Below, one piece after another: positions 19,183 through 37,876 of a stretch of 38,001 bases of DNA. This DNA is from Polyangiales bacterium (GTDB lineage: Bacteria; Myxococcota_A; Polyangia; Polyangiales; Houyiibacteriaceae), in contig JBLYYU010000263.1 in the NCBI GenBank assembly GCA_048550275.1, positions 1-38,001 of the forward strand, in the 5' to 3' direction. The notes below the pieces were generated by a model. It had not been told where the DNA came from. It searched no databases and was given only the letters and a program-made list of their open reading frames with translations. Each line of letters opens with the position of its first letter. Within the stretch, counting starts at the first letter, position 1. The position numbers and the translations under genes are program-made.

Positions 19183-20862
19183 ATGTTGAAGAAGCTTATT
19201 TGGATTGCGACTTGTGCAACGCTCGTCGCCGCGTGCGGCAGCGACGAGAGCCACGGGGGCAGCGGGGGCAGCGGTGGAGCCGGCGGCTCAGGCGGAGAAC
19301 CGCGCGGGCTCATCGTCGAGACCTTGCAAGGCTCTGTCGAAGGCTTGGAACAAGATGGTGTTCACGTATTTCGTGGCGTGCCCTACGCAGCGCCGCCCGT
19401 CGGCGAGCTCCGATGGAAGCCGCCACAGCCCGCGATCGAGCGTGATGGCCTTTTCGACGCCACCGCTCGCGGAAACGCCTGCATGCAGAACATCCTGATC
19501 CTCGGAGCGACCGGCGATGAGGATTGCCTCGTGTTGAACATCGCGACACCGGCCGAGGGCGAAAACCTTCCCGTCATGTTCTGGATCCACGGCGGCGCGT
19601 TCACCCTCGGCGAGGGCGCACAAACCGACGGCGGCACCCTCGGCGACGAGATCGCGAGAGAGGCCGGCGTGATCGTTGTCACGGTCAACTATCGCCTCGG
19701 CGCGTTTGGCTTCCTGTCGCACTCTGAGCTGAGCGACGAGTCACCCGAGGGCGCCTCCGGCAACTACGGGCTCATGGACCAGACCGCGGGGCTCGAATGG
19801 GTGCGCGACAACATCGCCGGTTTCGGCGGCGACCCGAACAATGTGACGATCTTCGGCGAGTCGGCAGGCGGCTTCAGCGTCTGCTCGCATCTCACCTCAC
19901 CGATGAGCGCCGGCCTGTTCCACAAAGCGATCACCCAGAGCGGAAATTGTGTGCGCCCCTGGCTGTCCCTCGAAGGAGCGGAGGCACAGGGCGAGACCTT
20001 TGCGGAAAAGATCGGCTGCGACACGGAGGATGACGTGCTCGCTTGCTTGCGCGGGAAGTCCCAGACCGACGTGCTCGCCGCCTTCCCCGCAGGGCCGAAC
20101 TTCGGATTCACGGATCTCGAAGGCGAAGGCGCCACCTGGTGGCCTATCTACGACGGACATTTCTTCACCGAGCAGTCGGCCGTGCGCATGGCCAGCGGTG
20201 AGTTCAACCAAGTGCCGGTGATGCTCGGTTTCACGCGTGACGAAGGTCAGCTCTTCACCTGGATGGCCGAAACGGACGCGGAGAACCCGACGCTGATCAC
20301 CGAGGACAACTACGACGATTTCCTCGCGAAGTACCTCGGCGGCGACCCTGTTCTGACGGCCCAAGCCCAGGCCCAGTACCCGCCCGATGCCTACGCCGCG
20401 CCCGCCGAGGCGCTCGGCGCGTTCACCACGGACGTCGTGTTCCGCTGCCCGGCCAGGAACGAAGCGGCGCTTCTCTCGGAGCACGTGACCACGTACCTCT
20501 ATCAATTCGAGTACACCGGAGCCCAGTTTCAACTCGACGCCTTCATGTCGCGCCCGGAGTATGGGCTCGGAGCGTTTCACTCCGCGGAGATTCAGTACGT
20601 ATTCGGAAGACCGGCCTCGATTTCGATGACCGAGTTTGAACCCGGCACGGATTCAGACCTCTGGATGGCCATGATGGGCTACTGGACCCGCTTCGCGGCG
20701 ACGGGAGATCCCAACGGCGGCGGCGCACCGAGCTGGAGCGCGTGGACGACCGACGGCGACGCTCATCTCGTCTTTGATGAGACGATCCGCCCCGGAACGG
20801 GTGCTGCCGCAACGGAGTGCGCGTTCTGGGAAGACAAAGACTACTTGTCCGCTCTGTTCTAG
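19183..20862 (+). CDS. Type-B carboxylesterase lipoprotein
   Basis: Lipobox VAAC + Gly/Ser linker; GVPYA.PP.G.LRW, EDCL.LN, WIHGG, FGESAGG nucleophile, H..EI.YVFG. Confidence 0.92.
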   Translation: MLKKLIWIATCATLVAACGSDESHGGSGGSGGAGGSGGEPRGLIVETLQGSVEGLEQDGVHVFRGVPYAAPPVGELRWKPPQPAIERDGLFDATARGNACMQNILILGATGDEDCLVLNIATPAEGENLPVMFWIHGGAFTLGEGAQTDGGTLGDEIAREAGVIVVTVNYRLGAFGFLSHSELSDESPEGASGNYGLMDQTAGLEWVRDNIAGFGGDPNNVTIFGESAGGFSVCSHLTSPMSAGLFHKAITQSGNCVRPWLSLEGAEAQGETFAEKIGCDTEDDVLACLRGKSQTDVLAAFPAGPNFGFTDLEGEGATWWPIYDGHFFTEQSAVRMASGEFNQVPVMLGFTRDEGQLFTWMAETDAENPTLITEDNYDDFLAKYLGGDPVLTAQAQAQYPPDAYAAPAEALGAFTTDVVFRCPARNEAALLSEHVTTYLYQFEYTGAQFQLDAFMSRPEYGLGAFHSAEIQYVFGRPASISMTEFEPGTDSDLWMAMMGYWTRFAATGDPNGGGAPSWSAWTTDGDAHLVFDETIRPGTGAAATECAFWEDKDYLSALF

Positions 20863-21945: not shown

Positions 21946-22115
21946 GGGGCGAGGATAGCCGAGGAAGCCTAGCGGCCACAACGGTGTCGATGCGCGGCGC
22001 CAACTGCGGGCGTGCTTAGGACTCGTCGGCCGCCTGCACTGGTCGAGATCCGGAACGAGGCCTTCCCGAAGTTGCGTGCTGCTGCCTAGGACGCCGCGGG
22101 TGCTAGCTTTTGCTC

Positions 22116-22913
22116 ATGTGTGCGCACCCCGCAGATCCAAATGACTCGGCCGCCACGAGTTGGCCTCAGGACGCGTCGCGGGATCGCTTGATTGGCGACT
22201 GGCACATCTACCAGCGAAGGGGCGGGCACCGGACCAGCACGGATGACCTGATCACGGCCTGGTATGCGGTTCATCGGAATCCGGGCCGACCGGAACGCTA
22301 CCTCGACCTCGGGTGCGGGATCGGCTCCGTTCTGCTGATGGTCTGTCACAAGCTTCGACCGACGTTTGCCGTCGGCGTGGAGGCGCAAGACCAGTCGGTT
22401 CTGATGGCGAGACGCTCGGTAGCCGAGCTGCAAGATCCTCGAAGCGAGATCGAAGTGCGTCACGCAGACTTCCGCGAGGTCGGGGATGAGCGGTTCGACC
22501 TCGTCACTGGCTCACCGCCGTACTTCCCGCTCGGTACCGGCGTATTGCCAGCGGACGCGCAGCGTCGTGCGTGTCGATTCGAGGAACGCGGCGGTGTCGA
22601 GGCCTACGTCGGCGCGGCAGCCCGTGTCCTCGGCGCGCGCGCGCGGCTCTACGTCGTGTTTCAGACGCGCGGAAGCCGGCGGGTCATGGAGGCAGCCGGT
22701 CGCGAGCAACTACATCTGAGCGGGCGCGCGGATTTTGCGATGCGCGCGGACGACCGAGAGCCGTTTCTGAGCGTGTTCGAGCTTTCGCGAGAAGCAGTGG
22801 AATCGCCTCATCGTTTTCGCTGCGCGGTGCGGGACGCGGACGGCGAAGTGAGCGCGGAGTATCAGAAGCTTCGGGTCGAGCTCGGTGTCGCGGCGCCGAT
22901 CACGAACGGCTGA
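22116..22913 (+). CDS. SAM-dependent methyltransferase, tRNA m6A37 (TrmN6/YfiC)-like
   Basis: IYQ...GHR.STDD, LDLGCGIG, GSPPYF motif IV. Confidence 0.75.
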   Translation: MCAHPADPNDSAATSWPQDASRDRLIGDWHIYQRRGGHRTSTDDLITAWYAVHRNPGRPERYLDLGCGIGSVLLMVCHKLRPTFAVGVEAQDQSVLMARRSVAELQDPRSEIEVRHADFREVGDERFDLVTGSPPYFPLGTGVLPADAQRRACRFEERGGVEAYVGAAARVLGARARLYVVFQTRGSRRVMEAAGREQLHLSGRADFAMRADDREPFLSVFELSREAVESPHRFRCAVRDADGEVSAEYQKLRVELGVAAPITNG

Positions 22914-25003: not shown

Positions 25004-26215
25004 ATGAGCACTGAGATCAAAACGAGCGACAGCCTTCACGACGTTCGCTACGAGATACGCGGGCAGTTGGCTCAGCGCGCGCAGGACATGGAGCGCCGAG
25101 GGCACGAGATCATCTCGATGAACATCGGGAACCCCGGGCTGTTTGGCTTTCGCACCCCAGAGACGATGCGAATGGCGATGATTGAAAATCTGCCGACCAG
25201 CGAAGCCTACTGCCATCAGAAGGGGATCTTTCCCGCGCGCGAAGCAGTGGTCATGCAGCAGCAAGAGCGCGGGGTCATGAACGTGACCGCCGAGCACGTC
25301 TTCATCGGCAATGGCGTGAGCGAGTTGATCGACTTGACCTTGCGCGCCTTGATCAACGACGGCGACGAGGTGCTGATCCCGAGCCCGGACTACCCGCTCT
25401 GGACGGCGGCGGTGACTCTGAACGGTGGTAAGGCGGTTCACTACCCTTGCCCGCCGGAAAGTGATTTCCAGCCTGACCTCGAGGCACTGGCCGGCCTCAT
25501 CACGGATCGGACCCGCGCGATCGTGATCATCAACCCGAACAACCCGACAGGCGCCGTGTACAGCCGCGAGGTCCTCCAGGCGATGGTGGCCCTGGCCGAA
25601 GAGCATGACCTCGTCATCTTCAGCGACGAGATCTACGACGGGATGGTGTACGACGACGCGGAGTTCGTTCCGGTCGCGCCCTTGGTGAAGGATACGCTGT
25701 GCGGTACCTTCAGTGGTTTGTCGAAGGTGTACCGCGCTTGCGGTTTTCGTGTCGGCTGGGTGGTCTTCAACGGAACCAACGAGCTTGCGACGGACTACCT
25801 GAACGGGCTCGACCTCCTCGCGTCGCTACGTTTGTGTAGCAACGTCCCAGGACAGTGGGGCGTACAGACAGCGCTTGGCGGCTATCAGAGCTTGAAGAAG
25901 CTGATTCGGCCGGGAGGGCGGCTATACGAATCGCGGCAGGCGGTGATTCGCGGGGTCGACGCGAGCGACTATCTGAAGCTGGTCGCGCCTGGCGGCGCGA
26001 TGTACGCGTTCGTAGGCGTAGACACGGACAAACTTCCCGATTTCGACGATTTGGATTTCGCGATGGAGCTCCTCGAGAAGCAGCATGTGCTGGTAGCGCC
26101 GGGGTCTAGCTTCAACGTCGAATACCGAAACTATTTCCGGATCACGGTCTTGCCGCACGCGAAGGTAATCGAAGAAGTGTTTCGGCGGATTGAGAAGGTT
26201 CTGAGCAGCGAATAG
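25004..26215 (+). CDS. alaA: PLP-dependent class I aminotransferase, AlaA/AlaT (alanine transaminase) type
   Basis: V.YEIRG, NIGNP, GNGVSELI, PDYPLWTA, NPNNPTG, SDEIY, GLSK.YRACGFR.GW, RLCSNVP.Q. Confidence 0.88.
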   Translation: MSTEIKTSDSLHDVRYEIRGQLAQRAQDMERRGHEIISMNIGNPGLFGFRTPETMRMAMIENLPTSEAYCHQKGIFPAREAVVMQQQERGVMNVTAEHVFIGNGVSELIDLTLRALINDGDEVLIPSPDYPLWTAAVTLNGGKAVHYPCPPESDFQPDLEALAGLITDRTRAIVIINPNNPTGAVYSREVLQAMVALAEEHDLVIFSDEIYDGMVYDDAEFVPVAPLVKDTLCGTFSGLSKVYRACGFRVGWVVFNGTNELATDYLNGLDLLASLRLCSNVPGQWGVQTALGGYQSLKKLIRPGGRLYESRQAVIRGVDASDYLKLVAPGGAMYAFVGVDTDKLPDFDDLDFAMELLEKQHVLVAPGSSFNVEYRNYFRITVLPHAKVIEEVFRRIEKVLSSE

Positions 26216-26240: not shown

Positions 26241-27878
26241 ATGACCAGTTCACGCAGTAAGTTACGCCCAGTTCACCTGATTGCACTCGCGTTGACGGCC
26301 GCGACTCTGCTCGGACTCGCCTTCGTCGCCCGCAAGGTGGTGACACACGGTGGGCGCGCTCTTGCTGCACCCGACTTGGTGGGTGAAGTCGCGGATCCAC
26401 CGAACCGCGCGGCTGCGGAGCCTCCTGCGCCCGGAACGACCACGGTCGAGCTCGAAGGCAGCGATGAGGTGCTGACCAACCCGGGAATGGGGTTCACGAG
26501 CTTTCACTTCGGATGGTGGTGCAATCTGCCTCCGATCACGTACCCGCCGAAGGAATGCGCCAAGCGCGTGCGTCAGCATTGGCCTGAGAACTACCCCGCA
26601 GCCGGGACGGCCTATTTCCGTTGGCATTGGCGAGACATCGAGCCCGAACGTGGTCAGTTCGCCTTCGACATGATCGACGCCGCGATTCAATCCGCGAACC
26701 AACTCGGGATGACCCTGTCCTTCCGTGTGATGACCGTCGCCGAAGGGAAGTCCGGCCTTCCAGATTGGTTGATGAACGCGCCGCACAAAGTCTCCGGTGA
26801 CTGGCGCCCGGGAGACGGCGGCAAGACGTTCTGGCCGGACTACCGCGACCCGAAGTACCAGAGCGAGCACGCTCGCATGATCGCCGCGCTCGGGAACCGG
26901 TACAACGGACATCCCGCTGTCGACCATGTCGACATCGGAACGGTGGGTTGCTGGGGTGAGTGGAACACGGCCTGTTTGTCGAACGTCGAGAGCCTCATCG
27001 AGGTCTACGAGCCCTCCAGCCGCAAAGAACGCCGTCAAATCGTGAAGGCACTGACGCAGCTTATCGACCACCACCTCACGGCCTTTTCGAAGACGCCGGT
27101 GATCATGCTGGGGTTGAACGCCGAGGACGTCGAGATGATGGTGCACGCCACTCGGGGCGGCGCAGGCTGGCGCGCAGATTGCTGGGGCGACTGGGGACTG
27201 TGGGGCGGCTCATGGAGCCATCAAGGCAAGCTCTACCCGCCGATGATCGCCGCGGCGACGGCCGCAGACGCCGAGTTCGTCGACGTATGGAAAAGAGCGC
27301 CGATTCAGCTGGAGATCTGCGGGACCCTCGAGAAGTGGAACTCGCTGGGATGGACCGCGTCCAAGCCCGACGGCAAGGTCTACAAGTCGTTCCAGTGGGC
27401 TCTGGCGCAACATGCGTCGGTGCTCAACGCCAAATCGAAGCCGGTGCCAGGCGCCTACACGGACGCGATCGACGAGCTGCTCAAGCGTGTTGGTTATCGC
27501 TTCACCGTCGACCGCTTCAATCATGGCAAGACGGTTCAACCTGGCGCCAACACCACTTTCATTTCGCAATGGCGCAATCTCGGGGTGGCGCCTGCGTATC
27601 TCCCGAGGACGCTTACCTACCGCCTCCGCGGAAAGTCCAAGAGCGTCATCTTTGCTAGCTCAGAGGACATCCGCACCTGGCTGCCAGGTAGCTGGAACGT
27701 CAGCGACACGGTCCGCATTCCTGACGAGCTTCCGACGGGCACGTACCAAGTGGACGTCGCGATATTGGACCGGGATGGCACCGCGCCTGCGACCACGGCG
27801 CTGCCCCCATTGCTCCTTGGCAACGCCGGCCGCAGAGCCGACGGCTGGTATCGGGTCTCGGCGCTCGAAGTGAAATGA
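26241..27878 (+). CDS. Membrane-anchored DUF4832-domain glycoside hydrolase-like protein (beta-galactosidase-like TIM barrel)
   Basis: N-terminal TM; NPGMGF, YFRW.W..IEPE.G.F, G.WGEW, GWRADCWG, VGYRF, N.GVAP.Y, WLPG. Confidence 0.7.
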   Translation: MTSSRSKLRPVHLIALALTAATLLGLAFVARKVVTHGGRALAAPDLVGEVADPPNRAAAEPPAPGTTTVELEGSDEVLTNPGMGFTSFHFGWWCNLPPITYPPKECAKRVRQHWPENYPAAGTAYFRWHWRDIEPERGQFAFDMIDAAIQSANQLGMTLSFRVMTVAEGKSGLPDWLMNAPHKVSGDWRPGDGGKTFWPDYRDPKYQSEHARMIAALGNRYNGHPAVDHVDIGTVGCWGEWNTACLSNVESLIEVYEPSSRKERRQIVKALTQLIDHHLTAFSKTPVIMLGLNAEDVEMMVHATRGGAGWRADCWGDWGLWGGSWSHQGKLYPPMIAAATAADAEFVDVWKRAPIQLEICGTLEKWNSLGWTASKPDGKVYKSFQWALAQHASVLNAKSKPVPGAYTDAIDELLKRVGYRFTVDRFNHGKTVQPGANTTFISQWRNLGVAPAYLPRTLTYRLRGKSKSVIFASSEDIRTWLPGSWNVSDTVRIPDELPTGTYQVDVAILDRDGTAPATTALPPLLLGNAGRRADGWYRVSALEVK

Positions 27879-27914: not shown

Positions 27915-29753
27915 TTGATTGAGTCTATCCGCCAGTTCTACGACCTGCTCACGCCCCCCGAGAGAAGTGGGGCGATGAAGGTCCTGCTCATGATGTGCGC
28001 CCTTGCGCTGCTCGAGGCGACAGGCGTCGCGTCGATCATGCCTTTCTTGGCCGTACTGTCGTCTCCTGACCTCATCGAGAGTAACTCGGCACTTGCGAAA
28101 CTTTCGGCATGGACCGGCATCACATCCTCAAACGACCTGCTGATCCTAACGGGCTCGTTGGTGTTCTGTTTGGTTTTGTCAGCGCTGCTTCTGCAAGCGC
28201 TGGTCGTTTGGGGTCAGGTTCGGTACGCCGGTGATTTAATGCACTCTTGGAGTTGCCGAATCGTGCAGACGTATCTGCGGCAACCGTACGAGTGGTTCCT
28301 CGGGAGGCATACATCGGAACTCTCGGCAACAACCATCAATGAAGTGAATCAAGCGATCTACCACGCGGTCTTGCCGATCCTCATGATCGTCAGCAACGCG
28401 CTCGTCGTGCTCGCTGTGTTCGCATTCCTAGTCATCGTCGATCCCATGTTGGCCGCGACGACGGTGCTCGTGCTCGGCGGGGCGTACGTGCTCACCTATC
28501 GGTTTCTCCGAGCTCGCATTCTCCGCGCGGGCGAATCGTGGCTCGAATCGAACCAGGCCCGGTACCACGTCTTGGCTGAAGCCTTCACCGGGATCAAAGA
28601 GGTCAAGGTCCTGCACGCCGAGGAGTCGTTCGCTGCGCGTTTCTCGTCGGTGTCCCGGCAGATGTGCGACGCGATGATCCGGTCGAAGGTGGTTGGACAC
28701 GTCCCATCGATCGCGATGCAGGCCGTCATTTTTGGCGGAATGCTCCTCGTGATTCTCTACGTGCTGGCGACGCGGGGAGGCTTCGCTGCCGGCCTACCGG
28801 TGATCGGACTCTACGCCTTCGCCGGCTACAAGATGATGCCAGCCCTTCAGAGGATATACGCCTACCTTGCGGAGATGGAGTTCTCCTCGGTGGCGCTCGT
28901 GTCCCTCGAAGAGCCGCTTCGACTCGCGAAGTTGCCCAAGAACGAGGGAGAGGCGTTTGCGACTGAGACGGCAACGGGGCCACGAGTCCGGTTGACCAAA
29001 GAGCTCGCATTTCGCGATCTCGTGTATCAGTACCCCGGGAGCGACCAGCCCACCCTGAAGCGGATGAACTTTTCGATCGAGGCAGGATCAAAGGTCGGAA
29101 TCGTGGGCACCACCGGGTCTGGTAAGACCACGACCGTCGACATCATCCTGGGGCTGCTTCGCCCGTTGCATGGCGAAGTCCTCGTCGACGGACGAGAGAT
29201 CGCAGACTCAAAGCTTCGCGCTTGGCAGGCGTCGATTGGCTACGTTCCCCAGACGATCTTCCTCGCGGATACCACGCTTGCCGGCAATATCGCCTTTGGG
29301 GTTCCGAAGGACGAGATCGATCATGACAGGGTCGAAACCGTATCGAAGCTCGCGAAGCTTCATGCTTTCGTCGTCGACGAGTTCCCGGACAAGTACGAAA
29401 GCCGGGCAGGTGAACGCGGCGTTCGTCTATCCGGAGGAGAGCGGCAGCGCGTCGGGATCGCGCGGGCGCTCTACCACGACCCCGATGTTCTCATTCTCGA
29501 TGAGGCTACCAGCGCTTTGGACAACGTCACCGAAAAGCTCGTCATGCAAGCGCTCGACGAGCTCACGCCCAGCAAGACGGTGATCATCATCGCCCATCGA
29601 CTGAGCACGGTCCGGAACTGCGACACGATCTTCTTCCTCGAGAACGGCCTGGTCTCCGGAAGTGGAAGCTTCGAAGCGCTCCGCGCGAGCCACCCGCGGT
29701 TCCGGTTGCTGGCTGAAGGCGAGACAGGCGTAGAAGCCGTCTCCGCCTCCTAG
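27915..29753 (+). CDS. ABC exporter, fused TMD-NBD (PglK/HepA/MsbA-like; probable lipid-linked glycan flippase)
   Basis: TM domain; GTTGSGKTT, YVPQ, LSGGERQR, ILDEATSALD, IAHRLST; located in a glycosyltransferase locus. Confidence 0.85.
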   Translation: MIESIRQFYDLLTPPERSGAMKVLLMMCALALLEATGVASIMPFLAVLSSPDLIESNSALAKLSAWTGITSSNDLLILTGSLVFCLVLSALLLQALVVWGQVRYAGDLMHSWSCRIVQTYLRQPYEWFLGRHTSELSATTINEVNQAIYHAVLPILMIVSNALVVLAVFAFLVIVDPMLAATTVLVLGGAYVLTYRFLRARILRAGESWLESNQARYHVLAEAFTGIKEVKVLHAEESFAARFSSVSRQMCDAMIRSKVVGHVPSIAMQAVIFGGMLLVILYVLATRGGFAAGLPVIGLYAFAGYKMMPALQRIYAYLAEMEFSSVALVSLEEPLRLAKLPKNEGEAFATETATGPRVRLTKELAFRDLVYQYPGSDQPTLKRMNFSIEAGSKVGIVGTTGSGKTTTVDIILGLLRPLHGEVLVDGREIADSKLRAWQASIGYVPQTIFLADTTLAGNIAFGVPKDEIDHDRVETVSKLAKLHAFVVDEFPDKYESRAGERGVRLSGGERQRVGIARALYHDPDVLILDEATSALDNVTEKLVMQALDELTPSKTVIIIAHRLSTVRNCDTIFFLENGLVSGSGSFEALRASHPRFRLLAEGETGVEAVSAS

Positions 29754-29858
29754 CCCTGATGCGCCGCCCTGCCGGAGCCGTGCCTACGCAAATCTGGCAA
29801 AAAGGCGCCCAATGGCGGCGTTCAATATGAAACGGTTGCGAGGCGAGACCGGCGGGCT

Positions 29859-29907
29859 CGTCCCCATTCGGTACAGGTTCCGATGAGGGGCGTTCGCTTG
29901 TGAAACG
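29859..29907. promoter_or_regulatory. Pair of 17-bp inverted repeats (putative enhancer-binding protein sites)
   Basis: CGTCCCCATTCGGTACA (29859-29875) and CGTTCGCTTGTGAAACG (29891-29907), 32 bp apart. A weaker third copy lies at 29818-29834. Confidence 0.5.
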
Positions 29908-29926
29908 CAAACGCCGTGTTCCGAGC

Positions 29927-29943
29927 CTGGCCCGGTTTTCGCA
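29927..29943 (+). promoter_or_regulatory. sigma54 -24/-12 promoter of the GlmS-like gene
   Basis: CTGGCCCGGTTTTCGCA has GG-N10-GC spacing and lies about 55 nt before the ATG at 29999. Confidence 0.7.
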
Positions 29944-29998
29944 GGTGTCCTGCACAGGATCCAGGGTTCGCTTCGACCCCTAGACCTGAAGGACGAAC

Positions 29999-31831
29999 AT
30001 GGGTGGGATTTTCTGCGCGACGGCGCACGACAACGTAGTTCCCAGCGTGATGCAAGGCCTGGCCGATTTGGAGGGCTGGGATTGCGATTCTGCGGGCATC
30101 GCGGTCTTGGCGGGCCATCAGATCCAACGGAGAAGGGCGCTGGGGCCCCTATCCTTCTTGAAAACGCTTCTCGTGGATGAGCCGATCGAGGGGGCAACCG
30201 TACTCGGCCACACACGCTCGGCGACCCACGGAGATCCGTCCCGCCACAACGCACATCCTCACGCGAGCTCTAGGGTGGCCGTCGTCCACAGCGGAGTCGT
30301 CGAGAATCATGCAGATCTCCGAGCAGAGCTGGAGCATGAGGGTGTCCAGTTCCGAAGCGAGACGGACAGCGAAGTCATCGTCTGGTTGCTCGACCGGGAA
30401 CTGGCGAATGGCGTCCATGCACTCGCCGCTCTGCAAAGGGTCCTGCCGCGGCTGCGAGGCTCGTTTGCCCTGGGGGTGATCTCCGCGAAACACGAGAATC
30501 ACGTGTTCGCCGCTCGGCGCGGCAGCCCGCTGGCTGCAGCAAGGTCCGATGCGACGTCTTGGTTGGCGTCGGAAACATCGTCTCTAGGCGGGGTCGCAGG
30601 CGAATACGTGCCTCTCGAGGATGGGCAGATCGCCGTGCTCAGCCCGGGCGGGGTTCGGGTCTTCGATTCGCAGCTCGAAGAAGTTCCCGTCAGCTGGGCG
30701 CGAGTTGTGAGCGCCCGAAACAAGAGGGAAAGCGGTCGAATCGTGACCGACGCAGCCCGCAGGAGCATTTTGGAATTGCCGGCGATGATCGAGGGTAAGC
30801 TGAGCGCGCTGCAGGCCGATTTGCTGTCCGGGGAGCTCGAGAGCTGGTGTGGTCCCCTTTGGCACGCTGAACGCATTCTCACTATCGGCGGCGGAACGTC
30901 ATTTGCGGCGGCCTACGTCGGACGGGCTTGGTTGGAGCAGATTGCGGAGATCCCGGTCGACCTGGAGCTCAGCTCGGAGCTCAAGGCCAGGCATGCCGTC
31001 CTGCCGGAGGGAACCATGGCGCTTCTGGTCTCTCGCTCCGAAGAAGACCCGGACGCGATGGACGCGCTGAGGTACCTGAAGCAGCGAAGCGTGCCAACGG
31101 TGTCACTCATCGATGCGCCTTCGAGCACCTTCGCTCGGGAAGCAGACGCAGTACTCGATTGGAGGGTCAGTCCTGGGGCTAGGGCCTCATCCGCCAGCGC
31201 ATTCACCGCGCAGCTCGGCGCGATCGCGGCAGCGGCGATCGCAATACGACAGCTTCGGGACGGGGGTCCCTACGATGGGTCCGCGCATACGTCGGTCTTC
31301 GGCGTGCCTCAGGCGATGAACAGCGCGCTCGAGGTGGAAGCTCAATGCGCTGCAGCCGGCCGCCGCATCGCAGAAGCGAATCATGGTGTCTTCCTCGGTC
31401 GGGGCTCCAGTCATCCGGTCGCGCTCATGGGCGCGCTCAACCTCGAAGAGATCTCCGACATACACGCCGAAGGCCTGGCCGGGGGTGAGCTCAGGCACCG
31501 TCCAGCCCTAGTCGCCGAGATCGGAGCCCCAGTGCTCGTGCTCGCGCCACACGATGAGACTTTCGAAAAGACCCTCGCGGACGCGCGGGAGATCGCCGCG
31601 CGTGGTGGAGACCCCATCCTCCTCGGTGACTCGGACACCGCAGTCGCGGCGAAGCGCGATGGGCTAACCTGCATTGCAGCGAGTCGAGTCGACCCGGCCT
31701 GGTCGCCGCTGGTGCTCGCGGTGCTGCTGCAATTGATCGCCTACCACGCCGCAGGCGCCCAAGAGTTGCAGACTACCCGCGCCCCCGTTCGGGAGGACCG
31801 GGTCTTCAAAGCGCAGGGGAGCGGCACTTAG
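29999..31831 (+). CDS. GlmS (glutamine-fructose-6-P amidotransferase) homologue, predicted catalytically inactive
   Basis: Colinear with GlmS over about 600 aa (DSAG, GHTR.ATHG, NAHPH, SETD.EV, AR.GSPL, FLGRG, EIS.IHAE, LQLIAYH). It begins MGGIF rather than MCGIV and lacks the PRNLAKSVTVE tail. The ORF is intact with a GAAGGA RBS. Confidence 0.85.
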   Translation: MGGIFCATAHDNVVPSVMQGLADLEGWDCDSAGIAVLAGHQIQRRRALGPLSFLKTLLVDEPIEGATVLGHTRSATHGDPSRHNAHPHASSRVAVVHSGVVENHADLRAELEHEGVQFRSETDSEVIVWLLDRELANGVHALAALQRVLPRLRGSFALGVISAKHENHVFAARRGSPLAAARSDATSWLASETSSLGGVAGEYVPLEDGQIAVLSPGGVRVFDSQLEEVPVSWARVVSARNKRESGRIVTDAARRSILELPAMIEGKLSALQADLLSGELESWCGPLWHAERILTIGGGTSFAAAYVGRAWLEQIAEIPVDLELSSELKARHAVLPEGTMALLVSRSEEDPDAMDALRYLKQRSVPTVSLIDAPSSTFAREADAVLDWRVSPGARASSASAFTAQLGAIAAAAIAIRQLRDGGPYDGSAHTSVFGVPQAMNSALEVEAQCAAAGRRIAEANHGVFLGRGSSHPVALMGALNLEEISDIHAEGLAGGELRHRPALVAEIGAPVLVLAPHDETFEKTLADAREIAARGGDPILLGDSDTAVAAKRDGLTCIAASRVDPAWSPLVLAVLLQLIAYHAAGAQELQTTRAPVREDRVFKAQGSGT

Positions 31832-31875
31832 AGAGACCCTAAAGGGCTAATCTTGCAATCTGCGCCTCTCTCCAG

Positions 31876-31922
31876 AGCCCCAAATCGGAACTCTGATGCG
31901 ATAGCTGTTGCAATTCGGCACA
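31876..31922. promoter_or_regulatory. Pair of 17-bp inverted repeats upstream of the sigma54 activator gene
   Basis: AGCCCCAAATCGGAACT (31876-31892) and TGTTGCAATTCGGCACA (31906-31922), 30 bp apart. Confidence 0.4.
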
Positions 31923-31990
31923 TCTCATCGGAGACTGGTCAGCCCCCCTGGCTTCTTCGCATCTACCGGAGAGGCAACCACGAGGAGTGA

Positions 31991-33466
31991 GTGCGAGTGC
32001 CTTCATTTCAAAGTGGCCCGCTGGTCGTGCTCGTTGGCGACGACCCGGACCAGCGCGCCGAAGTTTCTCGATGGCTCGACGAAGCGGGCATGCGCACGAC
32101 CGAATGCGCGGATGCCAAGAGTTTCCTGCGAACCATCGACAGTACGTTTCCCGATGTCGTGTGCCTGGACCTCGCCCTACCCGGCATGAGCGGCGGTGAG
32201 GCTCTCGAGGCAACGCTCCGACAACACCCTGGCGTTCCGGTCCTCACGTTCAACGCCGAGAGCTCCGAGCAGTCCGGCATCGACGCGATGCGGGCAGGCG
32301 CCTACGACTACCTAAGCACACCGATCGACCGCGACGGCGTGATTTCCTCGATTCACCGGGCTCTCCGACCGCCGCGCGAGCATCAACCGGCGGAAGTGGA
32401 CAGCACGATCGAGGAAGCGTCCTACGCGGGAGTGATCGGTCGTTCGTCGCGAATGCGCGACGTGTTTCGTCAGGTCGATCGAATCGCCGGTCGCGACATC
32501 AGCGTCTTGATCCGCGGAGACAGTGGCACAGGCAAGGAGCTGATCGCGCGGGCTATTCATGAGAACAGCCGCCGTGCGGGCGGCCCCTTCGTCGCGATCA
32601 ACTGCGCTGCGATCCCCGAGTCTCTCCAGGACTCCGAGCTCTTCGGGCACGAGCGCGGCTCCTTCACGGGCGCGCACAAGGCCCGGGCCGGCTGCTTCGA
32701 GCGGGCCGACGGTGGAACCATCTTTCTCGACGAGGTAGCGGAGCTGTCCCTCGGTGTGCAGGCCAAGTTGCTGCGCGTGCTGCAAGAACGTCGATTCGAC
32801 CGATTGGGCGGCATTCGCGCGGTGGAGAGCGACTTCAGACTGATCACCGCAACACACCACAGCCTGCGCGATATGGTCGAGGCCAACCGTTTTCGGGAGG
32901 ACCTCTACTTTCGGATCGTCGTATTCGAAATCGAGCTCCCGGCGCTCCGCGAGCGTGAGGGAGACCTCGCTCTGCTGGTTCCGAGGCTGCTCGAGGACGT
33001 CTCTGCGGGTCTCGGAGCAGGGCCGACGCGCCTGAGCTCTCGCGCAATGCGAGCGCTCGAGCGGTACCCATTTCCAGGAAACGTTCGGGAGCTCGAGAAC
33101 ATCCTTCAATGCGCGGCGGTGCTCGCGACGGGCGAGCAAATCGAGCTTCACGACCTGCCTGCTCGAGTTCGGAGCTATGACTCCGGAGCTTCGGTGCCGC
33201 CGGAGTCCGGCGTCGTGCCTGCCGGCGACAACGTGCCAACCACGATTGTCCCGCCAGCCATGAGGGTCCCAGACGGGGAGCCCTCCCGCGACCGTCCGAC
33301 ACCGAAGTCTCTGGATGAGCTTCCTTTGGCGCTCGAAGACGTCGAACGCTGGGCGGTGAAACGCGCGCTCCGCGATAAGAACGGCCGACTCACCGAGGCG
33401 GCGAAGGCCCTGGGAATCGGGCGGACGACGCTCTACCGAAAGCTCGAGAAGTACGGGCTGCGCTGA
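31991..33466 (+). CDS. sigma54-dependent enhancer-binding protein (receiver-AAA+-Fis HTH), atypical receiver
   Basis: GDSGTGKE, ELFGHERGSFTGA, FLDEV, FREDLYFR, FPGNVRELEN, AAKALGIGRTTLYRKL; GAGGAG RBS before the GTG start. Confidence 0.93.
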   Translation: MRVPSFQSGPLVVLVGDDPDQRAEVSRWLDEAGMRTTECADAKSFLRTIDSTFPDVVCLDLALPGMSGGEALEATLRQHPGVPVLTFNAESSEQSGIDAMRAGAYDYLSTPIDRDGVISSIHRALRPPREHQPAEVDSTIEEASYAGVIGRSSRMRDVFRQVDRIAGRDISVLIRGDSGTGKELIARAIHENSRRAGGPFVAINCAAIPESLQDSELFGHERGSFTGAHKARAGCFERADGGTIFLDEVAELSLGVQAKLLRVLQERRFDRLGGIRAVESDFRLITATHHSLRDMVEANRFREDLYFRIVVFEIELPALREREGDLALLVPRLLEDVSAGLGAGPTRLSSRAMRALERYPFPGNVRELENILQCAAVLATGEQIELHDLPARVRSYDSGASVPPESGVVPAGDNVPTTIVPPAMRVPDGEPSRDRPTPKSLDELPLALEDVERWAVKRALRDKNGRLTEAAKALGIGRTTLYRKLEKYGLR

Positions 33467-33470
33467 GCGC

Positions 33471-35282
33471 TCAGTGCGCGCCGCGTCGGTTCACGATCAC
33501 TAGGAGAGTGAGCGCGATGACGCGCAGCTCCATCGCCAGGTAGCTTCGGAGCCCGTAGAGATGAGCGTTGTACGTGAAATCGTAGAGCAGCTTCTCGCGC
33601 ACGCTCTCCACCGAGGTGTCGTACCCGGTGTGGACCTGCGCCCATCCGGTGATGCCCGGCTTGCACGGCGGGTGTCGATCGTCGTAGCCGGGCAGCTCGA
33701 GTGACAACGAATCCGTAATCGATGGGCGCTCCGGGCGCGGGCCGACCAAGGTCATCTCTCCTCGCAGCACCTGGAAGAGCTGAGGCACTTCGTCGAGCCT
33801 GATCTTCCGGAGGAAGGCCCCGACCGGGGTGACGCGAGGATCCTTGGCCTGCGCCCAAACCGCTGCTCCATCGGCCTCCGCGTCGACGGTCATCGTCCGG
33901 AACTTGTAGATGACGAAGCGATACCGGTTGCCGGAGTAGTCCTTCGCAACCCGCTCCTGGCGATACAGGACGGGCCCCGGCGAGTTCAAACGAATGGCCA
34001 CGGCGACCAGCGGTATCAGAGGCAACGCGAACATGATCCCGACCGAGCTACCGACGACGTCCAGCGTTCGCTTAGTGACGCGAACGGAACGCGGCGGCAG
34101 CGCGGGGCGATGGAGCGCGAGCACCTCATGCTCGGGAGGGCGGCGCCAGCGCGTTCCGTTGGCACCGAAGGGAAAGCGAAGGATCCCGGCCGCGCACGCC
34201 GTCTGTGCGACGAGCGCGTGCACTCCGAGGTCGAGGGTTCGAGGTAGCGAGAGGCCAACTCCACGCCAGGCCGTGCACAAGACGAGCACGAGGAGCAAGA
34301 CGTCACCCGCGATGGCCAGCGGGACCATCGCCGGCACGGCCATGGCGCGCAGATTCACCCAAAGCGCGAGCCCGAGGATCCAGACAGGCCCCAGGGTCTT
34401 GAACAGCTTGTGTCCGATCAGACTGAGGGCGATTCGGCCCTCACGCGGACGCAGCAGCGTGCGATAGCGCCAGAGAATCTGCAGGTTGCCGTGCGCCATG
34501 CGCGCGGTTCGCTGAAAGATGGTCGACAGTCGAGTGGGCGCAACGTCCGGTACGACCAAGTCGGTACGATAGGCGATGCGTCCGCCGGCCGCGCGGGCGA
34601 GCAACGGCCAGAGTAGATCATCGTGAATCGTGTCGGCGGGGACATCGGCGATCGCATCGCGGCGAATGAGGTAGCATGCGCCATGCGCACCGAGCAGCAT
34701 GTCGCGTTCCGCTTCGAGCGCCTTCAACCGAGTCTCGCGACTCCAATACGCACCTTCCGCGGTTGCCGTGCCGTCTTGCGCAACAGCAGCGTAGCGGGGC
34801 ATGGCGACCGCGACGCTCGGATCGGCGAGATCTTTCACGAGCTCGGCAAGGGTGTTCTCCGGCAGGTCCGCACCGACATCCGTGAACAAGACGAGCTCGC
34901 CCCGCGCGTGCCCGAGCAAGTGCTTGAGTGCGGCGAGCTTGCCGCCTCGGGCATGGAGCTCGAATAGACGGACCCCTTCGCTCTCGTAGGCGCGCGCGAC
35001 GTCGGCGGTTCGATCGCCCGAGCCGTCCGACGCAACGAGGATCTCGATGAGCTCGGGCGGATAGGAAAGCGCGAGCACATTTCGCAGCTTGCGCCCCAAG
35101 CCCGCCGCCTCGTTGTGTGCGGGGATCAGCACGCTCACCGAGGGCAGAACTGGGGATTTCGGCGTCGCGCTTCGCCTGCTCGGTCGAATCACGTACCGAA
35201 CGAGAAGCGGATAGAGCACGTACGGAGATACGAGCGCCAAGAACAAGGATGTGATGAGGACCAGATCAATCCAAGTGGGCAT
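33471..35282 (-). CDS. Fusion: GT2 glycosyltransferase + bacterial sugar transferase (polyprenyl-phosphate priming phosphoglycosyl transferase)
   Basis: N-half: SVLIPAHNE, SDGS.D.T, GGK..AL, FTD, HDD, R.AR...G..Q. C-half: KR.LD, SPGPVLYRQER, IYKFRTM, DPRVT.VG.FLRK.RLDE.PQ, VGPRPERP, KPGITGWAQV. Confidence 0.88.
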   Translation of the reverse strand: MPTWIDLVLITSLFLALVSPYVLYPLLVRYVIRPSRRSATPKSPVLPSVSVLIPAHNEAAGLGRKLRNVLALSYPPELIEILVASDGSGDRTADVARAYESEGVRLFELHARGGKLAALKHLLGHARGELVLFTDVGADLPENTLAELVKDLADPSVAVAMPRYAAVAQDGTATAEGAYWSRETRLKALEAERDMLLGAHGACYLIRRDAIADVPADTIHDDLLWPLLARAAGGRIAYRTDLVVPDVAPTRLSTIFQRTARMAHGNLQILWRYRTLLRPREGRIALSLIGHKLFKTLGPVWILGLALWVNLRAMAVPAMVPLAIAGDVLLLVLVLCTAWRGVGLSLPRTLDLGVHALVAQTACAAGILRFPFGANGTRWRRPPEHEVLALHRPALPPRSVRVTKRTLDVVGSSVGIMFALPLIPLVAVAIRLNSPGPVLYRQERVAKDYSGNRYRFVIYKFRTMTVDAEADGAAVWAQAKDPRVTPVGAFLRKIRLDEVPQLFQVLRGEMTLVGPRPERPSITDSLSLELPGYDDRHPPCKPGITGWAQVHTGYDTSVESVREKLLYDFTYNAHLYGLRSYLAMELRVIALTLLVIVNRRGAH

Positions 35283-35336
35283 GTAGTTACCTGGGGGTCT
35301 TCGACTTGCTTAGACGAAGGGGGGGGCTGTCGGGTA

Positions 35337-35353
35337 TGCAACCACCAGACCAA
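35337..35353 (-). promoter_or_regulatory. sigma54 -24/-12 promoter of the GT2-priming transferase fusion
   Basis: Minus strand TTGGTCTGGTGGTTGCA has GG-N10-GC spacing and lies about 55 nt upstream of the ATG at 35282. Confidence 0.7.
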
Positions 35354-35413
35354 CCTTAGGGACACCAAGATCGGGGTCCATACCATCAGTTTTTTTCCCG
35401 GTGACCCGATCGA

Positions 35414-35461
35414 CGCCCCCAATTGGAACAGAGCTCGTCCGGGAACTTCCGAAGTGAAACA
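35414..35461. promoter_or_regulatory. Pair of 17-bp inverted repeats (putative enhancer sites)
   Basis: CGCCCCCAATTGGAACA (35414-35430) and ACTTCCGAAGTGAAACA (35445-35461), 31 bp apart, about 60-110 bp upstream of the -24 element. Confidence 0.5.
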
Positions 35462-35514
35462 CCAGTGGGCAGCCCAGGAGATTCTGCGAGCTCGATCCAA
35501 GACCGAAAGGCCGC

Positions 35515-36603
35515 TCATGCATTTGCAACCTCATGGTAATGTTGTGTGGTCAGCGCTGCCCAGGACTCGGGGGAATGCCGAAGGCGGACTTCGGGCCCGC
35601 GGCGGTGGGCGCCCTCGCGGAGCGTTGTCCTTTGCGATGGCAGTGATTCGAGTGCGATCGACCATGCTTCGACGTCGTCAGGCGCGACCAAGATCGCGTT
35701 TTCGCCTTCCCAGACAGCCTCAGGCACCCCGCCTACCCTGCTCGCGACGACTGGAACTTCACTGGCGGCCGCTTCCAATATCACCAAGGGGAGCCCCTCC
35801 CGCCGGGAGGGCAGAACGAGAGCTTCGGCTTTGGACAAGAGCTCAGGAACATCCCGCCGCACGCCGAGCCAGCGCACTCTATTTTCGAGGCCGAGCTCGG
35901 TCGAAAGCGCCTTCCACTGGTCCGCACAGGGTCCATCGCCGGCCACATCGAGACTGAGCTCCTTGGGCGCGCGGGGCGTGGCGAGTGCTCGGAGCAGAAC
36001 ATCCAGGCCCTTTTCTTCGCTCAATCGGCCCAAGAACAGCAGAGCGCCTTCCGATGGCGGAGAGCCGGCTTCGGAACCCGGAGCGGGAAGCGAGACCGGG
36101 TTCGGCACGGTCCGGAGCTTGGAGCGGGGCACCCCAGCGGCGACGAGCGCCTCCGTCGTCGCGTTCGACACCGCGAATACGAGGTCGACCCGCGCGTAGA
36201 GGGAGCGAGCGAGCCCCTCGTAGAGACGGGCCAGACGATCGTGGCCGGTTTCACCGTGATGCGTGACCACGAGGGACGAGCGCTTGCTGCGCGCGAAGAT
36301 CGAATAGACCAGCGCTTTGTAGCCGTGCGCGTGAACGAGCTCCGCGCCCTGCGCTCTCAGTTTCTGACGAAGATGGACGATCGAGCGGACATCGAACCTG
36401 CCTCGGGCGCGCAGGGGCTCGACCGGGACCCCCTTGGCCTGCGCCGCCGCAATGAGCTGCTCGCCATATTGCGGACAGCGATCGTCCACGATGACGAGCA
36501 GGCGAACCTCGTGTCCCTTCGCGACCAGAGCCGCGCAGCCCTGAAGGACGACATTTTCGGCTCCCGCCATGAGGCCCGGGGCGATGATGTGGCTCACGCG
36601 CAC
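35515..36603 (-). CDS. Glycosyltransferase family 4
   Basis: GAE, VHAHG, T.HG, NPV, GRLSEEKG, GDGP, PSRREGLPLVILEAAA (EX7E), SRVGGVPE. Confidence 0.92.
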   Translation of the reverse strand: MRVSHIIAPGLMAGAENVVLQGCAALVAKGHEVRLLVIVDDRCPQYGEQLIAAAQAKGVPVEPLRARGRFDVRSIVHLRQKLRAQGAELVHAHGYKALVYSIFARSKRSSLVVTHHGETGHDRLARLYEGLARSLYARVDLVFAVSNATTEALVAAGVPRSKLRTVPNPVSLPAPGSEAGSPPSEGALLFLGRLSEEKGLDVLLRALATPRAPKELSLDVAGDGPCADQWKALSTELGLENRVRWLGVRRDVPELLSKAEALVLPSRREGLPLVILEAAASEVPVVASRVGGVPEAVWEGENAILVAPDDVEAWSIALESLPSQRTTLREGAHRRGPEVRLRHSPESWAALTTQHYHEVANA

Positions 36604-37742
36604 GGTTCAGGCCCGATAGGAGACCTGAGGAAGGGCCTCTTCGCGATCTCGCTGTAGAGCTCGACGTACCGGTCGACCATGCTGTCGATGCTGTAGCTCT
36701 CCTGTATGCGCGCCCGCCCGCTCATCGCGAGAGCTTGAGCTCGATCGGGCCCTTCCGCGAGGCTCGTCAGGGCGCGGGCCAGAAATTCGGGGGCCTGGGA
36801 CGGCACCAGCAGGCCCGCTCCTCCAGCCAGAAGCTCCCCGACGCCTCCTACGTCGGTCGCAACGACCGGAACACCGAAAGACATCGCTTCGAGCAGGCAA
36901 AGCGGAAGACCCTCTCGCGTGCTGTTGAGAACGCAGGCGTCGAGCGCCGAGTAGAACGGGGCCATGTCCTCGACGGCGCCCAGCCATCGGACCTGCTCGC
37001 TCAGGCCTGCGCGCTCCGCCTGAGCGCGAAGCGTGGGACCAAGCGGGCCTTCACCCGCACAGGCGAGAATCGAACCGGGTTTGTCACGGAGCAGGCGCGC
37101 AAACGCCTCGAGGAGACCTGCGTGGTTCTTCTCGGGCGAAAGCCGGGCGGCGCAGCCAACCACGAAGCTGCCTTCGTCTGCGCCGAGCAGAGCACGCCCC
37201 TGAGCCCGCATTGGCTGCACATCCGCCGGAAGAGGGACGCCGTTGGGGATCACCCGGCATCGGCCCGGCCAGCGCTTTCGGTACTCGGCGACCTCCGGAG
37301 ACACGGCGACAACCTCAGCGAACGGTGACATGAGAGCGCCCAGGACTCGCCTCCGCCGGGTATCGTAGAGCTCGTGCGAGTGCTCGGTGTGGACCTGGGG
37401 ACAGCGCGCGAGAAACGCCGCGGGCGCCCCGTACACGAACGGGCCGACGTGGTGAGTGTGCAAGACGTCGATTCGCTCCCGCCGGAGGACAGACCGCAGC
37501 CGCCATACCAGCCTCGGATTCAGGCCCGGACCGCTCTCGACCAACATCGTCCGAATGCCCTGCTGCTCGAGCGCTGGCCGGATTGGGCCGTCTCCCAGGT
37601 AGCCGATCACCAGGCTTTCGACGCCCCGCGACCTCGAGGCGACGCTCAGCCGCTCGACCATGCGCTCGAGCCCGCCGATCGCGAAGTACTGAATCAGATG
37701 GGCTACGCGCAACGGCCGATGCGGCTTGGTTTGCTCGGTCAA
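36594..37742 (-). CDS. Glycosyltransferase family 4
   Basis: GGLER, LHTHH, TEH, IPNGV, ARLSPEKNH, STREGLPLCLLEAMS (EX7E), TDVGGV.E. TTG at 37742 chosen because GGAG precedes it and it lies downstream of the sigma54 promoter. Confidence 0.9.
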   Translation of the reverse strand: MTEQTKPHRPLRVAHLIQYFAIGGLERMVERLSVASRSRGVESLVIGYLGDGPIRPALEQQGIRTMLVESGPGLNPRLVWRLRSVLRRERIDVLHTHHVGPFVYGAPAAFLARCPQVHTEHSHELYDTRRRRVLGALMSPFAEVVAVSPEVAEYRKRWPGRCRVIPNGVPLPADVQPMRAQGRALLGADEGSFVVGCAARLSPEKNHAGLLEAFARLLRDKPGSILACAGEGPLGPTLRAQAERAGLSEQVRWLGAVEDMAPFYSALDACVLNSTREGLPLCLLEAMSFGVPVVATDVGGVGELLAGGAGLLVPSQAPEFLARALTSLAEGPDRAQALAMSGRARIQESYSIDSMVDRYVELYSEIAKRPFLRSPIGPEPCA

Positions 37743-37792
37743 GCTAGACTCCGGGGAACAGACCAGAATGGGTTCCGAGATGGGACGATGGC

Positions 37793-37809
37793 AGCAAGTA
37801 TCGAGCCAT
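37793..37809 (-). promoter_or_regulatory. sigma54 -24/-12 promoter of the GT4 operon
   Basis: Minus strand ATGGCTCGATACTTGCT, a near-consensus TGGC-N7-TTGC match. Confidence 0.8.
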
Positions 37810-37827
37810 CGGACCAAAGCGCACGCC

Positions 37828-37876
37828 TGTCCCGAACCGGCACGGCAGAACGCTGAAGGTGTTTCGTAGTGAAACG
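37828..37876. promoter_or_regulatory. Pair of 17-bp inverted repeats between divergent sigma54 promoters
   Basis: TGTCCCGAACCGGCACG (37828-37844) and TGTTTCGTAGTGAAACG (37860-37876), 32 bp apart. Confidence 0.55.

Follow-up and report, generated by a model that had tools for sequence, protein, structure and literature searches.

A probable pseudoenzyme derived from glucosamine-6-phosphate synthase, encoded beside a sigma54 activator in uncultured Myxococcota

Glutamine--fructose-6-phosphate transaminase (GlmS, EC 2.6.1.16), the synthase of glucosamine-6-phosphate (GlcN-6-P), combines a class-II glutamine amidotransferase domain with two following SIS repeats in about 600 residues. In the enzyme of Escherichia coli, Cys1, terminal after removal of Met, is the nucleophile, Asn98 the oxyanion residue and Trp74 the gate, with R73 and D123 contacting the alpha-carboxylate and alpha-amino groups of glutamine, and these roles were mapped onto the homologues discussed below; His504 is supplied across the dimer interface. 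No N-terminal nucleophile (Ntn) amidotransferase is known to do without this nucleophile. Here we describe a GlmS-like gene in a 38,001-nucleotide stretch of DNA from a Polyangiales bacterium (assembly GCA_048550275.1, contig JBLYYU010000263.1, positions 1 to 38,001 of the forward strand; hereafter the window), the product of which is very probably a pseudoenzyme maintained by selection that does not synthesise GlcN-6-P. It resembles E. coli GlmS (1jxa, 2j6h, 3ooj; TIGR01135) in length, two-domain architecture and fold and passes the hidden Markov model of the family, but lacks Cys1, R26, W74, N98, Q348, T352, K403, K485, K603 and the conserved C-terminal tail. Moreover, it is a second copy, present in addition to a canonical glmS, and its residues appear to rule out the known reaction; its job is probably a new and non-enzymatic one.

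With regard to gene arrangement, the described systems that come closest are NifL-NifA and PspA-PspF, where a non-catalytic or enzyme-derived protein is encoded together with a sigma54 enhancer-binding protein and exerts feedback on it by protein contact. The GlmS-like gene is likewise found upstream of a gene for a sigma54 enhancer-binding protein and behind a sigma54 promoter; it differs in that there is no homology to those systems, and that the activator here keeps a receiver domain like ordinary two-component regulators. Regulation of an active enzyme by its dead paralogue, if it applied here, would resemble HisZ-HisG. Such regulation of an active twin is described for the trypanosome AdoMetDC prozyme (PMC5201418), which has another fold and another partner than the GlmS-like protein. 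The pair DhaQ-DhaS of Lactococcus lactis (PMC7590123) shows a metabolic-enzyme paralogue reused as a ligand-sensing co-regulator and is a precedent for an enzyme-derived co-activator, with other folds and partners; pseudoenzymes in general are surveyed in PMC5106787. PMC3162934 connects sigma54 with GlmS in enterobacteria only through GlmY/GlmZ/YhbJ. A catalytically dead GlmS family was not found described in our literature search. The protein represents a pseudoenzyme variant, not described before, of an enzyme that is itself very well known, and its evolutionary and regulatory setting is unusually clear.

The open reading frame (ORF) is intact, as an earlier note on this DNA had stated, and Pfam recognises in its product a GATase_6/7 (class-II glutamine amidotransferase) domain and two SIS stretches. 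Residues 2-585 align with the E. coli GlmS structures 1jxa, 4amv, 2j6h and 3ooj (E of about 1e-93, about 33% identity), and the cut-off of the NCBIfam glmS equivalog TIGR01135 is narrowly passed, at 419.9 versus 418.05 bits. The substitutions that the note had listed by eye are all seen in the E. coli GlmS alignment. On the glutaminase side, Cys1 is replaced by Gly (MGGIF; codon GGT at 30002-30004), LEYRGYD by LEGWDCD, whereby R26 becomes Trp (W27 in this protein), W74 by Ser and N98 by Ser, so that neither the nucleophile nor the helpers Asn98, Trp74 and Arg26 are left. On the isomerase side, SQSGETAD has become SRSEEDPD, VASTK has become ASSAS, and the columns of Lys485 and Lys603 hold Asn (N481) and Asp (D600), respectively; Q348, T352 and K403 are gone as well. 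The alignment also bears out the residues said to be kept, R73, T76, H77, H86, D123, E488 and H504, and within the set formed by the sugar-phosphate loops and Lys485, Glu488, His504 and Lys603 only Glu488 and His504 remain. The note had further claimed that the tail carrying Lys603 is absent: the lysine is indeed lost, but the protein is of full length (610 versus 608-610 residues), its tail being unrelated in sequence. Lys604, which adjoins the Lys603 column, is not kept in a relative with 87% identity (P0002).

The loss of Cys1 is beyond chance, because 228 of 230 full-length GlmS homologues from outside the clade described below start with MCG, the remaining two resembling truncated gene calls. 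Neither is it an assembly slip, since the ORF recurs, with codon 2 unchanged, in the contigs of four DNA runs that belong to one study, two of these runs being possible sources of the window. The sole difference in the run contigs concerns position 30161, where all four runs have G and the window has A (K55E); the P0002 relative carries Glu there, too. Furthermore, the genome assembly of the window (553 contigs, 88% complete) contains a second TIGR01135 match on contig C46, with 792 bits and all the motifs of an active enzyme (MCGIV, LEYRGYD, HTRWATHG, SQSGET, VASTK, LKLKEIS, KHGP and a tail ending in NLAKTVTVE). This active paralogue covers the original function, and GlcN-6-P is supplied by the canonical glmS; matches of canonical type were present in 39 of the 41 genomes searched.

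Relatives without Cys1 form a conserved group. A search of 5.8 billion proteins returned 35 clusters (P0002-P0036) with 46-87% identity and 461-1155 bits, followed by a sharp break to ordinary GlmS at no more than 393 bits and about 39% identity. When a protein library reduced to clusters of 50% identity was searched with the clade profile, two representatives (1038 and 829 bits) ranked ahead of ordinary GlmS, which reached no more than 513 bits. A pattern scan over one genome per species (185,579 species) detected the clade in eight genomes, all of them metagenome-assembled and labelled Myxococcota, Myxococcales, Polyangiales or 'delta proteobacterium', the next matches being ordinary GlmS with at most 39% identity, and a scan of metagenomes added 15 loci. 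Within the genus of the window, the paralogue occurred in five of 24 other species (G008, G023, G007, G017 and G021, the copy of G007 being Cys-bearing), and no copy was found in 16 genomes belonging to other families within the order. The clade is narrow and belongs to Myxococcota, uncultured soil and sediment bacteria. It should be added that its public names are inconsistent: P0017 and several JGI entries bear the name glutamine--fructose-6-phosphate transaminase, and P0026 and P0032 the name 'SIS domain-containing protein'.

For residue-by-residue comparison we used 38 distinct Cys-less sequences, seven Cys-bearing members of the clade and four canonical GlmS, leaving out partial sequences, exact duplicates and the truncated gene calls P0024 and P0031. 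Every catalytic or binding residue is kept in all 11 sequences of the Cys type. Among the 38 Cys-less ones, Cys1 is never retained (Gly in 24, Ser in 12, Ala and Asp in one each), and retention is low at R26 (3/38), W74 (6/38), T352 (4/38; Asp in 24), K403 (2/38), K485 (3/38), E488 (4/38; Ala in 26) and K603 (8/38), with N98 (17/38) and H86 (18/38; Gln in 20) kept in about half. High retention was observed at G99 and N84 (both 38/38), T76 (37/38), S303 (36/38), D123 (35/38), R73 and H77 (both 31/38) and H504 (29/38); R73 is lost in the seven most divergent members, and G505 is Arg in 27 of 38. Retention of E488, as noted in the window protein, is peculiar to its sub-lineage; no more than four of the 38 Cys-less members have this residue.

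A quick IQ-TREE phylogeny of 51 sequences, rooted at the midpoint, places all Cys-less sequences on one branch (39 rows, support of 99 in the SH-like approximate likelihood-ratio test). Canonical GlmS lies outside, followed by the Cys-bearing P0020-like sequences, then by the Cys-bearing P0016/L037 and finally by the Cys-less branch. The earliest splits within it lead to P0008, P0009 and P0007, all with Gly1 and Ala488 but still with SQSGETAD, Lys485 and a lysine in the tail. The Cys-bearing sisters (P0016/L037; P0020/L043, L118-L120) are 53-58% identical to the window protein and share its sigma54 promoter and upstream blocks; they differ in retaining all catalytic and binding residues (7/7), in a ratio of nonsynonymous to synonymous substitution rates (dN/dS) of 0.10-0.12, and in a hybrid kinase, with or without H-NOX, encoded upstream. 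Judging from the tree, the dead copy descends from an active second GlmS ('GlmS2'). The codons at position 1 fit a stepwise path TGT/TGC to GGT to AGT, and the sequences with Ser1 form one subclade (12 rows, support 100), a pattern that points to a single loss of Cys1 by TGT to GGT and a later change of GGT to AGT in one subclade.

The Ser1 subclade (P0011-P0015, P0017, P0019, L035, L036, L042, L112, L115, L116) keeps Asn98 and Gly99 in all 12 rows, unlike most Gly1 rows, and Ntn activity with Ser as the nucleophile is conceivable there. More generally, altered chemistry would mean amidase or isomerase activity through other residues, a Ser-nucleophile Ntn hydrolase in this subclade, or residual isomerase activity through E488 and H504, which the window protein retains. 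Since Met is removed where a small residue follows it, and such a residue is present in 37 of 38 members, the N-terminal amine should also stay exposed. Nevertheless, we regard altered chemistry as very unlikely: position 1 of the window protein is Gly, N98 is replaced by Ser, none of K485, K603, K403, Q348 and T352 is left, and on the tree the first state to appear is Gly1 (P0007-P0009).

Selection on the gene was assessed by pairwise Nei-Gojobori estimates with our own script. Five unsaturated pairs of dead members (synonymous divergence, dS, 0.19-0.76) gave dN/dS values of 0.186-0.249, i.e. 0.186 for L042-L112 (dS 0.25), 0.235 for L042-L036, 0.221 for L036-L112, 0.249 for L035-L042 and 0.202 for L034-L117 (dS 0.76); three pairs of the Cys type gave 0.10-0.115. 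Neighbouring genes in the same pairs yielded 0.13-0.23 (activator), 0.13-0.18 (fused glycosyltransferase GT2-PGT) and 0.15-0.30 (DUF4832). In five of six pairs the N-domain stood at 0.10-0.15, and the SIS half at 0.18-0.29: the glutaminase-like half is the more constrained one, and constraint is about two-fold looser than in the active sisters, with the loosening mainly in the isomerase half. The outcome that would have spoken for decay according to the earlier note, dN/dS near 1 and no conserved dead orthologues, was thus not what we found, and its view that the gene is no decaying pseudogene holds. A neutral relic, that is a dying gene perhaps open only through transcription of the activator gene across it, would fit the progressive decay of catalytic residues and the evolution that is faster than that of neighbours in the same loci (48-66% versus 60-80% identity). 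We consider it highly improbable, given purifying selection like that on functional neighbours, 38 distinct intact members spanning 45-87% identity, not one stop or frameshift in 18 full-length loci read, a conserved ribosome-binding site and a confident structure model.

This AlphaFold2 model, built on the clade alignment, indicates a well-folded protein (mean predicted local distance difference test, pLDDT, 84.4; predicted template modelling score 0.75), in which confidence is lower in three places only: the linker that joins the domains (240-247), the loop that corresponds to VASTK (391-396) and the tail (594-610, modelled as disordered with pLDDT below 50). In Foldseek the N-domain was paired with the glutaminase domain of E. 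coli (1xff, TMt 0.92, root-mean-square deviation 1.8) and the C-terminal half with isomerase domains (3tbf, TMt 0.83), i.e. the fold is homologous and the key catalytic residues are gone. A complex prediction for GlmS-like residues 1-590 with activator residues 1-400, made without controls, scored 0.00 and speaks neither for nor against contact. The predicted integrity of the SIS dimerisation fold, together with the retention of His504 in 29 of 38 members and the presence of a canonical GlmS in every genome carrying the dead copy, would agree with a dead paralogue that hetero-oligomerises with canonical GlmS, or with another enzyme of the hexosamine pathway, and tunes its activity when the regulon is induced; control of active twins by dead paralogues is an established class (PMC5201418). 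We find this explanation doubtful: identity to the GlmS of the same genome is only about 33%, the SIS half is the less constrained one (dN/dS 0.18-0.29), and the conserved linkage is with the activator and not with glmS, which lies on another contig.

The gene lies within a sigma54-controlled polysaccharide locus, and its regulatory setting is conserved as well. Both the ribosome-binding site and the sigma54 promoter proposed in the earlier note are real features: all 21 related loci, Cys-bearing ones included, have the element TGGCCCG-N4-TTCGCA, located 66 to 96 nt ahead of the start codon, and GAAGGA or GGAGG is kept at the position of the ribosome-binding site. In each of the 16 Cys-less loci that could be assessed, the next gene downstream is that of the activator, and two further contigs end inside the gene; in the window the spacer measures 159 nt. 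Glycosyltransferase (GT) genes are conserved beside the pair where contigs reach, in line with the synteny that the note had proposed to examine, and DUF4832, usually also the ABC exporter, is conserved upstream of Cys-less members.

These conserved neighbours, and matching sigma54 promoters that co-regulate the gene with the GT operon, can be cited for a structural or carrier part in the polysaccharide pathway, in which the protein would act as a scaffold, or bind an uncharged or cationic amino sugar in its remodelled, acidic SIS pocket. Its partners would be the GTs, the DUF4832/GH42-like protein and the ABC exporter, and it would have no part in transcription. The directional changes of the SIS pocket (T352 to Asp in 24/38, G505 to Arg in 27/38, E488 to Ala in 26/38) could be understood in the same way. 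Still, such a role seems quite unlikely, as the protein has no signal or membrane segment and there is no precedent, the Cys-bearing ancestor had the sigma54 promoter already without DUF4832 and ABC neighbours, and the SIS loops at about 391-396 are poorly modelled.

As to what the protein does, we tentatively favour a non-catalytic, ligand-binding regulatory protein of the sigma54 regulon, with a glutamine site, that feeds back on the adjacent activator; this is possible and held with low confidence. In this scheme the N-domain would use its retained site for the alpha-amino-acid part of glutamine (R73, T76, H77, D123, G99) to hold glutamine or a similar amino acid, which would not be hydrolysed. 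Whether the site is occupied would act back on the neighbouring activator and hence on the gene's own promoter and the GT operon, and polysaccharide synthesis would thereby be coupled to nitrogen or hexosamine supply. The residue pattern is compatible with glutamine binding, as R73, T76 and D123 are kept, C1, N98, W74 and R26 are lost and the N-domain is the more constrained, and the position beside the activator (16/16) behind a sigma54 promoter (21/21) is NifL-like. The repurposed ligand sensor suggested in the earlier note stands in so far as a conserved dead paralogue is kept by selection; its sugar-phosphate variant is not supported. The pocket has lost three lysines and gained acidic residues (SRSEEDPD; D600), and a sugar-phosphate sensor is unlikely because the phosphate loops and K403, K485 and K603 (lost in 36, 35 and 30 of 38 members) have given way to residues that are mostly acidic or neutral.

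Several observations weigh against a feedback protein with a glutamine site. Plain cis-regulation, with the gene as a target of the activator, accounts equally well for the position of the two genes side by side. The glutamine site is not uniformly kept, because R73 is lost in seven and H86 is Gln in 20 of the 38 members, and the residues that are kept could be structural. No obvious new interface has evolved, since the only residues newly fixed in the dead clade are S90, S245 and D528, which offer no candidate for one. Four dead loci (L039, L126, L121/122 and, in part, L038) still have the kinase upstream. Many signatures found clade-wide (W129, W188, W233, WCGP 283-286, W568) predate the loss of Cys1, which suggests that a second function, if there is one, was already in the active ancestor.

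The upstream kinase bears on the history of the module. All Cys-bearing loci encode a hybrid histidine kinase (HisKA-HATPase-REC-Hpt) immediately upstream of the GlmS gene, an H-NOX gene precedes the kinase in L043 and L118-L120, and in the Cys-bearing L037 the activator is also downstream. The H-NOX gene and the kinase (HNOBA-PAS-HisKA-HATPase-REC-Hpt) upstream of active GlmS2 (L043 4425-7825; L118-L120; L037 6221-7897) suggest an ancestral module that coupled sensing of nitric oxide or haem to hexosamine supply. The hybrid kinase is absent upstream in the window, L034, L117, L124 and the Ser1 subclade; a Pfam scan of 29 window ORFs gave no histidine-kinase domain, and no kinase orthologue was found elsewhere in genomes G000, G008 and G023 (best matches 28-31% identity). 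From this distribution we infer that a sigma54-driven active second GlmS, placed within a two-component module between a hybrid kinase (often with H-NOX in front of it) and an NtrC-type activator, lost catalysis once and that the kinase was lost afterwards in several lineages, throughout which the GlmS-like/activator pair stayed together. Replacement of the histidine kinase by the dead protein as input of the activator was considered and is weakened by the four dead loci retaining the kinase; because of them the GlmS-like protein is no simple substitute for kinase input. It is conceivable but rather unlikely that the GlmS-derived pseudoenzyme has become a metabolic input device that binds glutamine or a similar amino acid in its nucleophile-less Ntn pocket and gates the sigma54 bacterial enhancer-binding protein (bEBP), and that in lineages like that of the window, where the input from H-NOX and hybrid kinase is lost, it has taken over the polysaccharide regulon. 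It should also be added that the kinase matches in L121 (1069-2515) and L122 (1647-3093) come as two overlapping pieces in different frames, i.e. a frameshifted kinase or a sequencing error.

Irrespective of its exact job, the protein matters for annotation. Because the NCBIfam glmS threshold is still passed, and some members are publicly named as the transaminase, automatic metabolic reconstructions would list a second GlcN-6-P synthase for these organisms, although the protein is almost certainly inactive as such. The clade furthermore offers an unusually clean series from enzyme to pseudoenzyme in one genomic context with all stages extant: an active sigma54-driven GlmS2, forms in which the losses are confined to Cys1, Glu488 and the VASTK loop, and forms with both sites eroded. 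If the protein does modulate the activator or canonical GlmS, nitrogen or hexosamine status would be tied to sigma54-controlled polysaccharide output in Myxococcota; if it is an input device of the activator, it would represent a new class of enzyme-derived bEBP co-regulator with active, glutaminase-dead and fully dead intermediates extant.

Table 1. Coordinates of the GlmS-like gene, its neighbours and associated sequence elements in the window
Feature	Position	Strand	Remarks
GlmS-like gene, probable pseudoenzyme	29999..31831	+	610 residues; from domains, E. coli GlmS alignment, site table and AlphaFold2 model
Glutaminase-like Ntn domain	residues ~2-240 of GlmS-like protein		
Two SIS repeats	residues ~287-590 of GlmS-like protein		
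Diverged, disordered tail	residues 594-610 of GlmS-like protein		
sigma54-type promoter TGGCCCGGTTTTCGCA	29928..29943	+	-24 GG / -12 GC, GG-N10-GC, 56 nt before ATG
Shine-Dalgarno GAAGGA	29988..29993	+	5 nt before ATG
Upstream block GTTCAATATGAAACGG	29820-29835	+	candidate enhancer site (upstream activating sequence)
Upstream block CGTCCCCATTCGGTACA	29859-29875	+	candidate enhancer site (upstream activating sequence)
Upstream block GGCGTTCGCTTGTGAAACGC	29889-29908	+	candidate enhancer site (upstream activating sequence)
Spacer block (..CGGAAC..GTTGCAATTCGGCACA..ATCGGAGA..)	31880..31937	+	alignment of 9 loci
NtrC-type sigma54 enhancer-binding response regulator	31991..33466	+	REC - AAA+ sigma54 interaction - Fis-type helix-turn-helix (HTH_8)
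Class I/II aminotransferase	25004-26215	+	
DUF4832/GH42-like protein	26241-27878	+	
Fused TMD-NBD ABC exporter	27915-29753	+	
GT operon	33471..37817	-	running towards activator gene
GT4	36594-37817	-	
GT4	35515-36603	-	
GT2 fused to Bac_transf polyprenyl-phosphate sugar-phosphate transferase	33471-35282	-	single 603-residue protein
sigma54-like promoter TGGCTCGATACTTGCT	37793..37808	-	head of GT operon

The GT2-Bac_transf fusion listed in Table 1 shows 69-78% identity across loci. The activator of the window has DYLSTP at residues of about 106-111 of its receiver domain, the conserved Lys being replaced by Thr, where the 13 other orthologues read DYLxKP; degeneration of the receiver throughout the dead clade was accordingly rejected, as the replacement is found in one of 14 aligned copies, that of the window. 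The genome with this Lys to Thr change is also one without a neighbouring hybrid kinase.

Alignment of 15 upstream regions, Cys-bearing ones included, revealed the sigma54 element as an invariant block preceded by three further blocks with the consensus GTCCGAAATGAAACGG, CGTCCCCATTCGGnACA and GGCGTTCGnTTGTGAAACGC, which are plausible enhancer sites. Within the window, a loose sigma54 pattern was not enriched (5 found versus 2.35 expected), nor were the motifs ATTYGGNAC and TGAAACG, so that support for the regulatory elements comes from conservation across loci only. A scan of 29500-32200 for sigma70 promoters and terminators gave no promoter-like site, and the sole terminator-like site was on the minus strand; co-transcription of the GlmS-like gene and the activator gene is possible. 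The spacer block between the two genes shares ATTCGGnAC with one of the upstream blocks (29866-29874) and in some loci shows GG-N10-GC spacing and a TCGCA -12-like element, so that a binding site or a second promoter may be present here.

Farther upstream of the polysaccharide genes lie genes for a sulfotransferase, a carboxylesterase and a methyltransferase (16802-18052, 19183-20862 and 22110-22913), which had no match at E <= 1e-8 and 1e-15 in related loci, these reaching no more than about 10 kb beyond the gene. At the other end, the sigma54-like promoter of the GT operon (TGGCTCnnnnCTTGCT) has an equivalent in eight of eight loci (window, L034, L042, L039, L036, L114, L116 and L117), and because of this conserved promoter the TTG start called for the operon at 37817 is probably too far upstream. 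A copy of TGAAACG is located at 37870-37876, about 60 nt upstream of the GT promoter.

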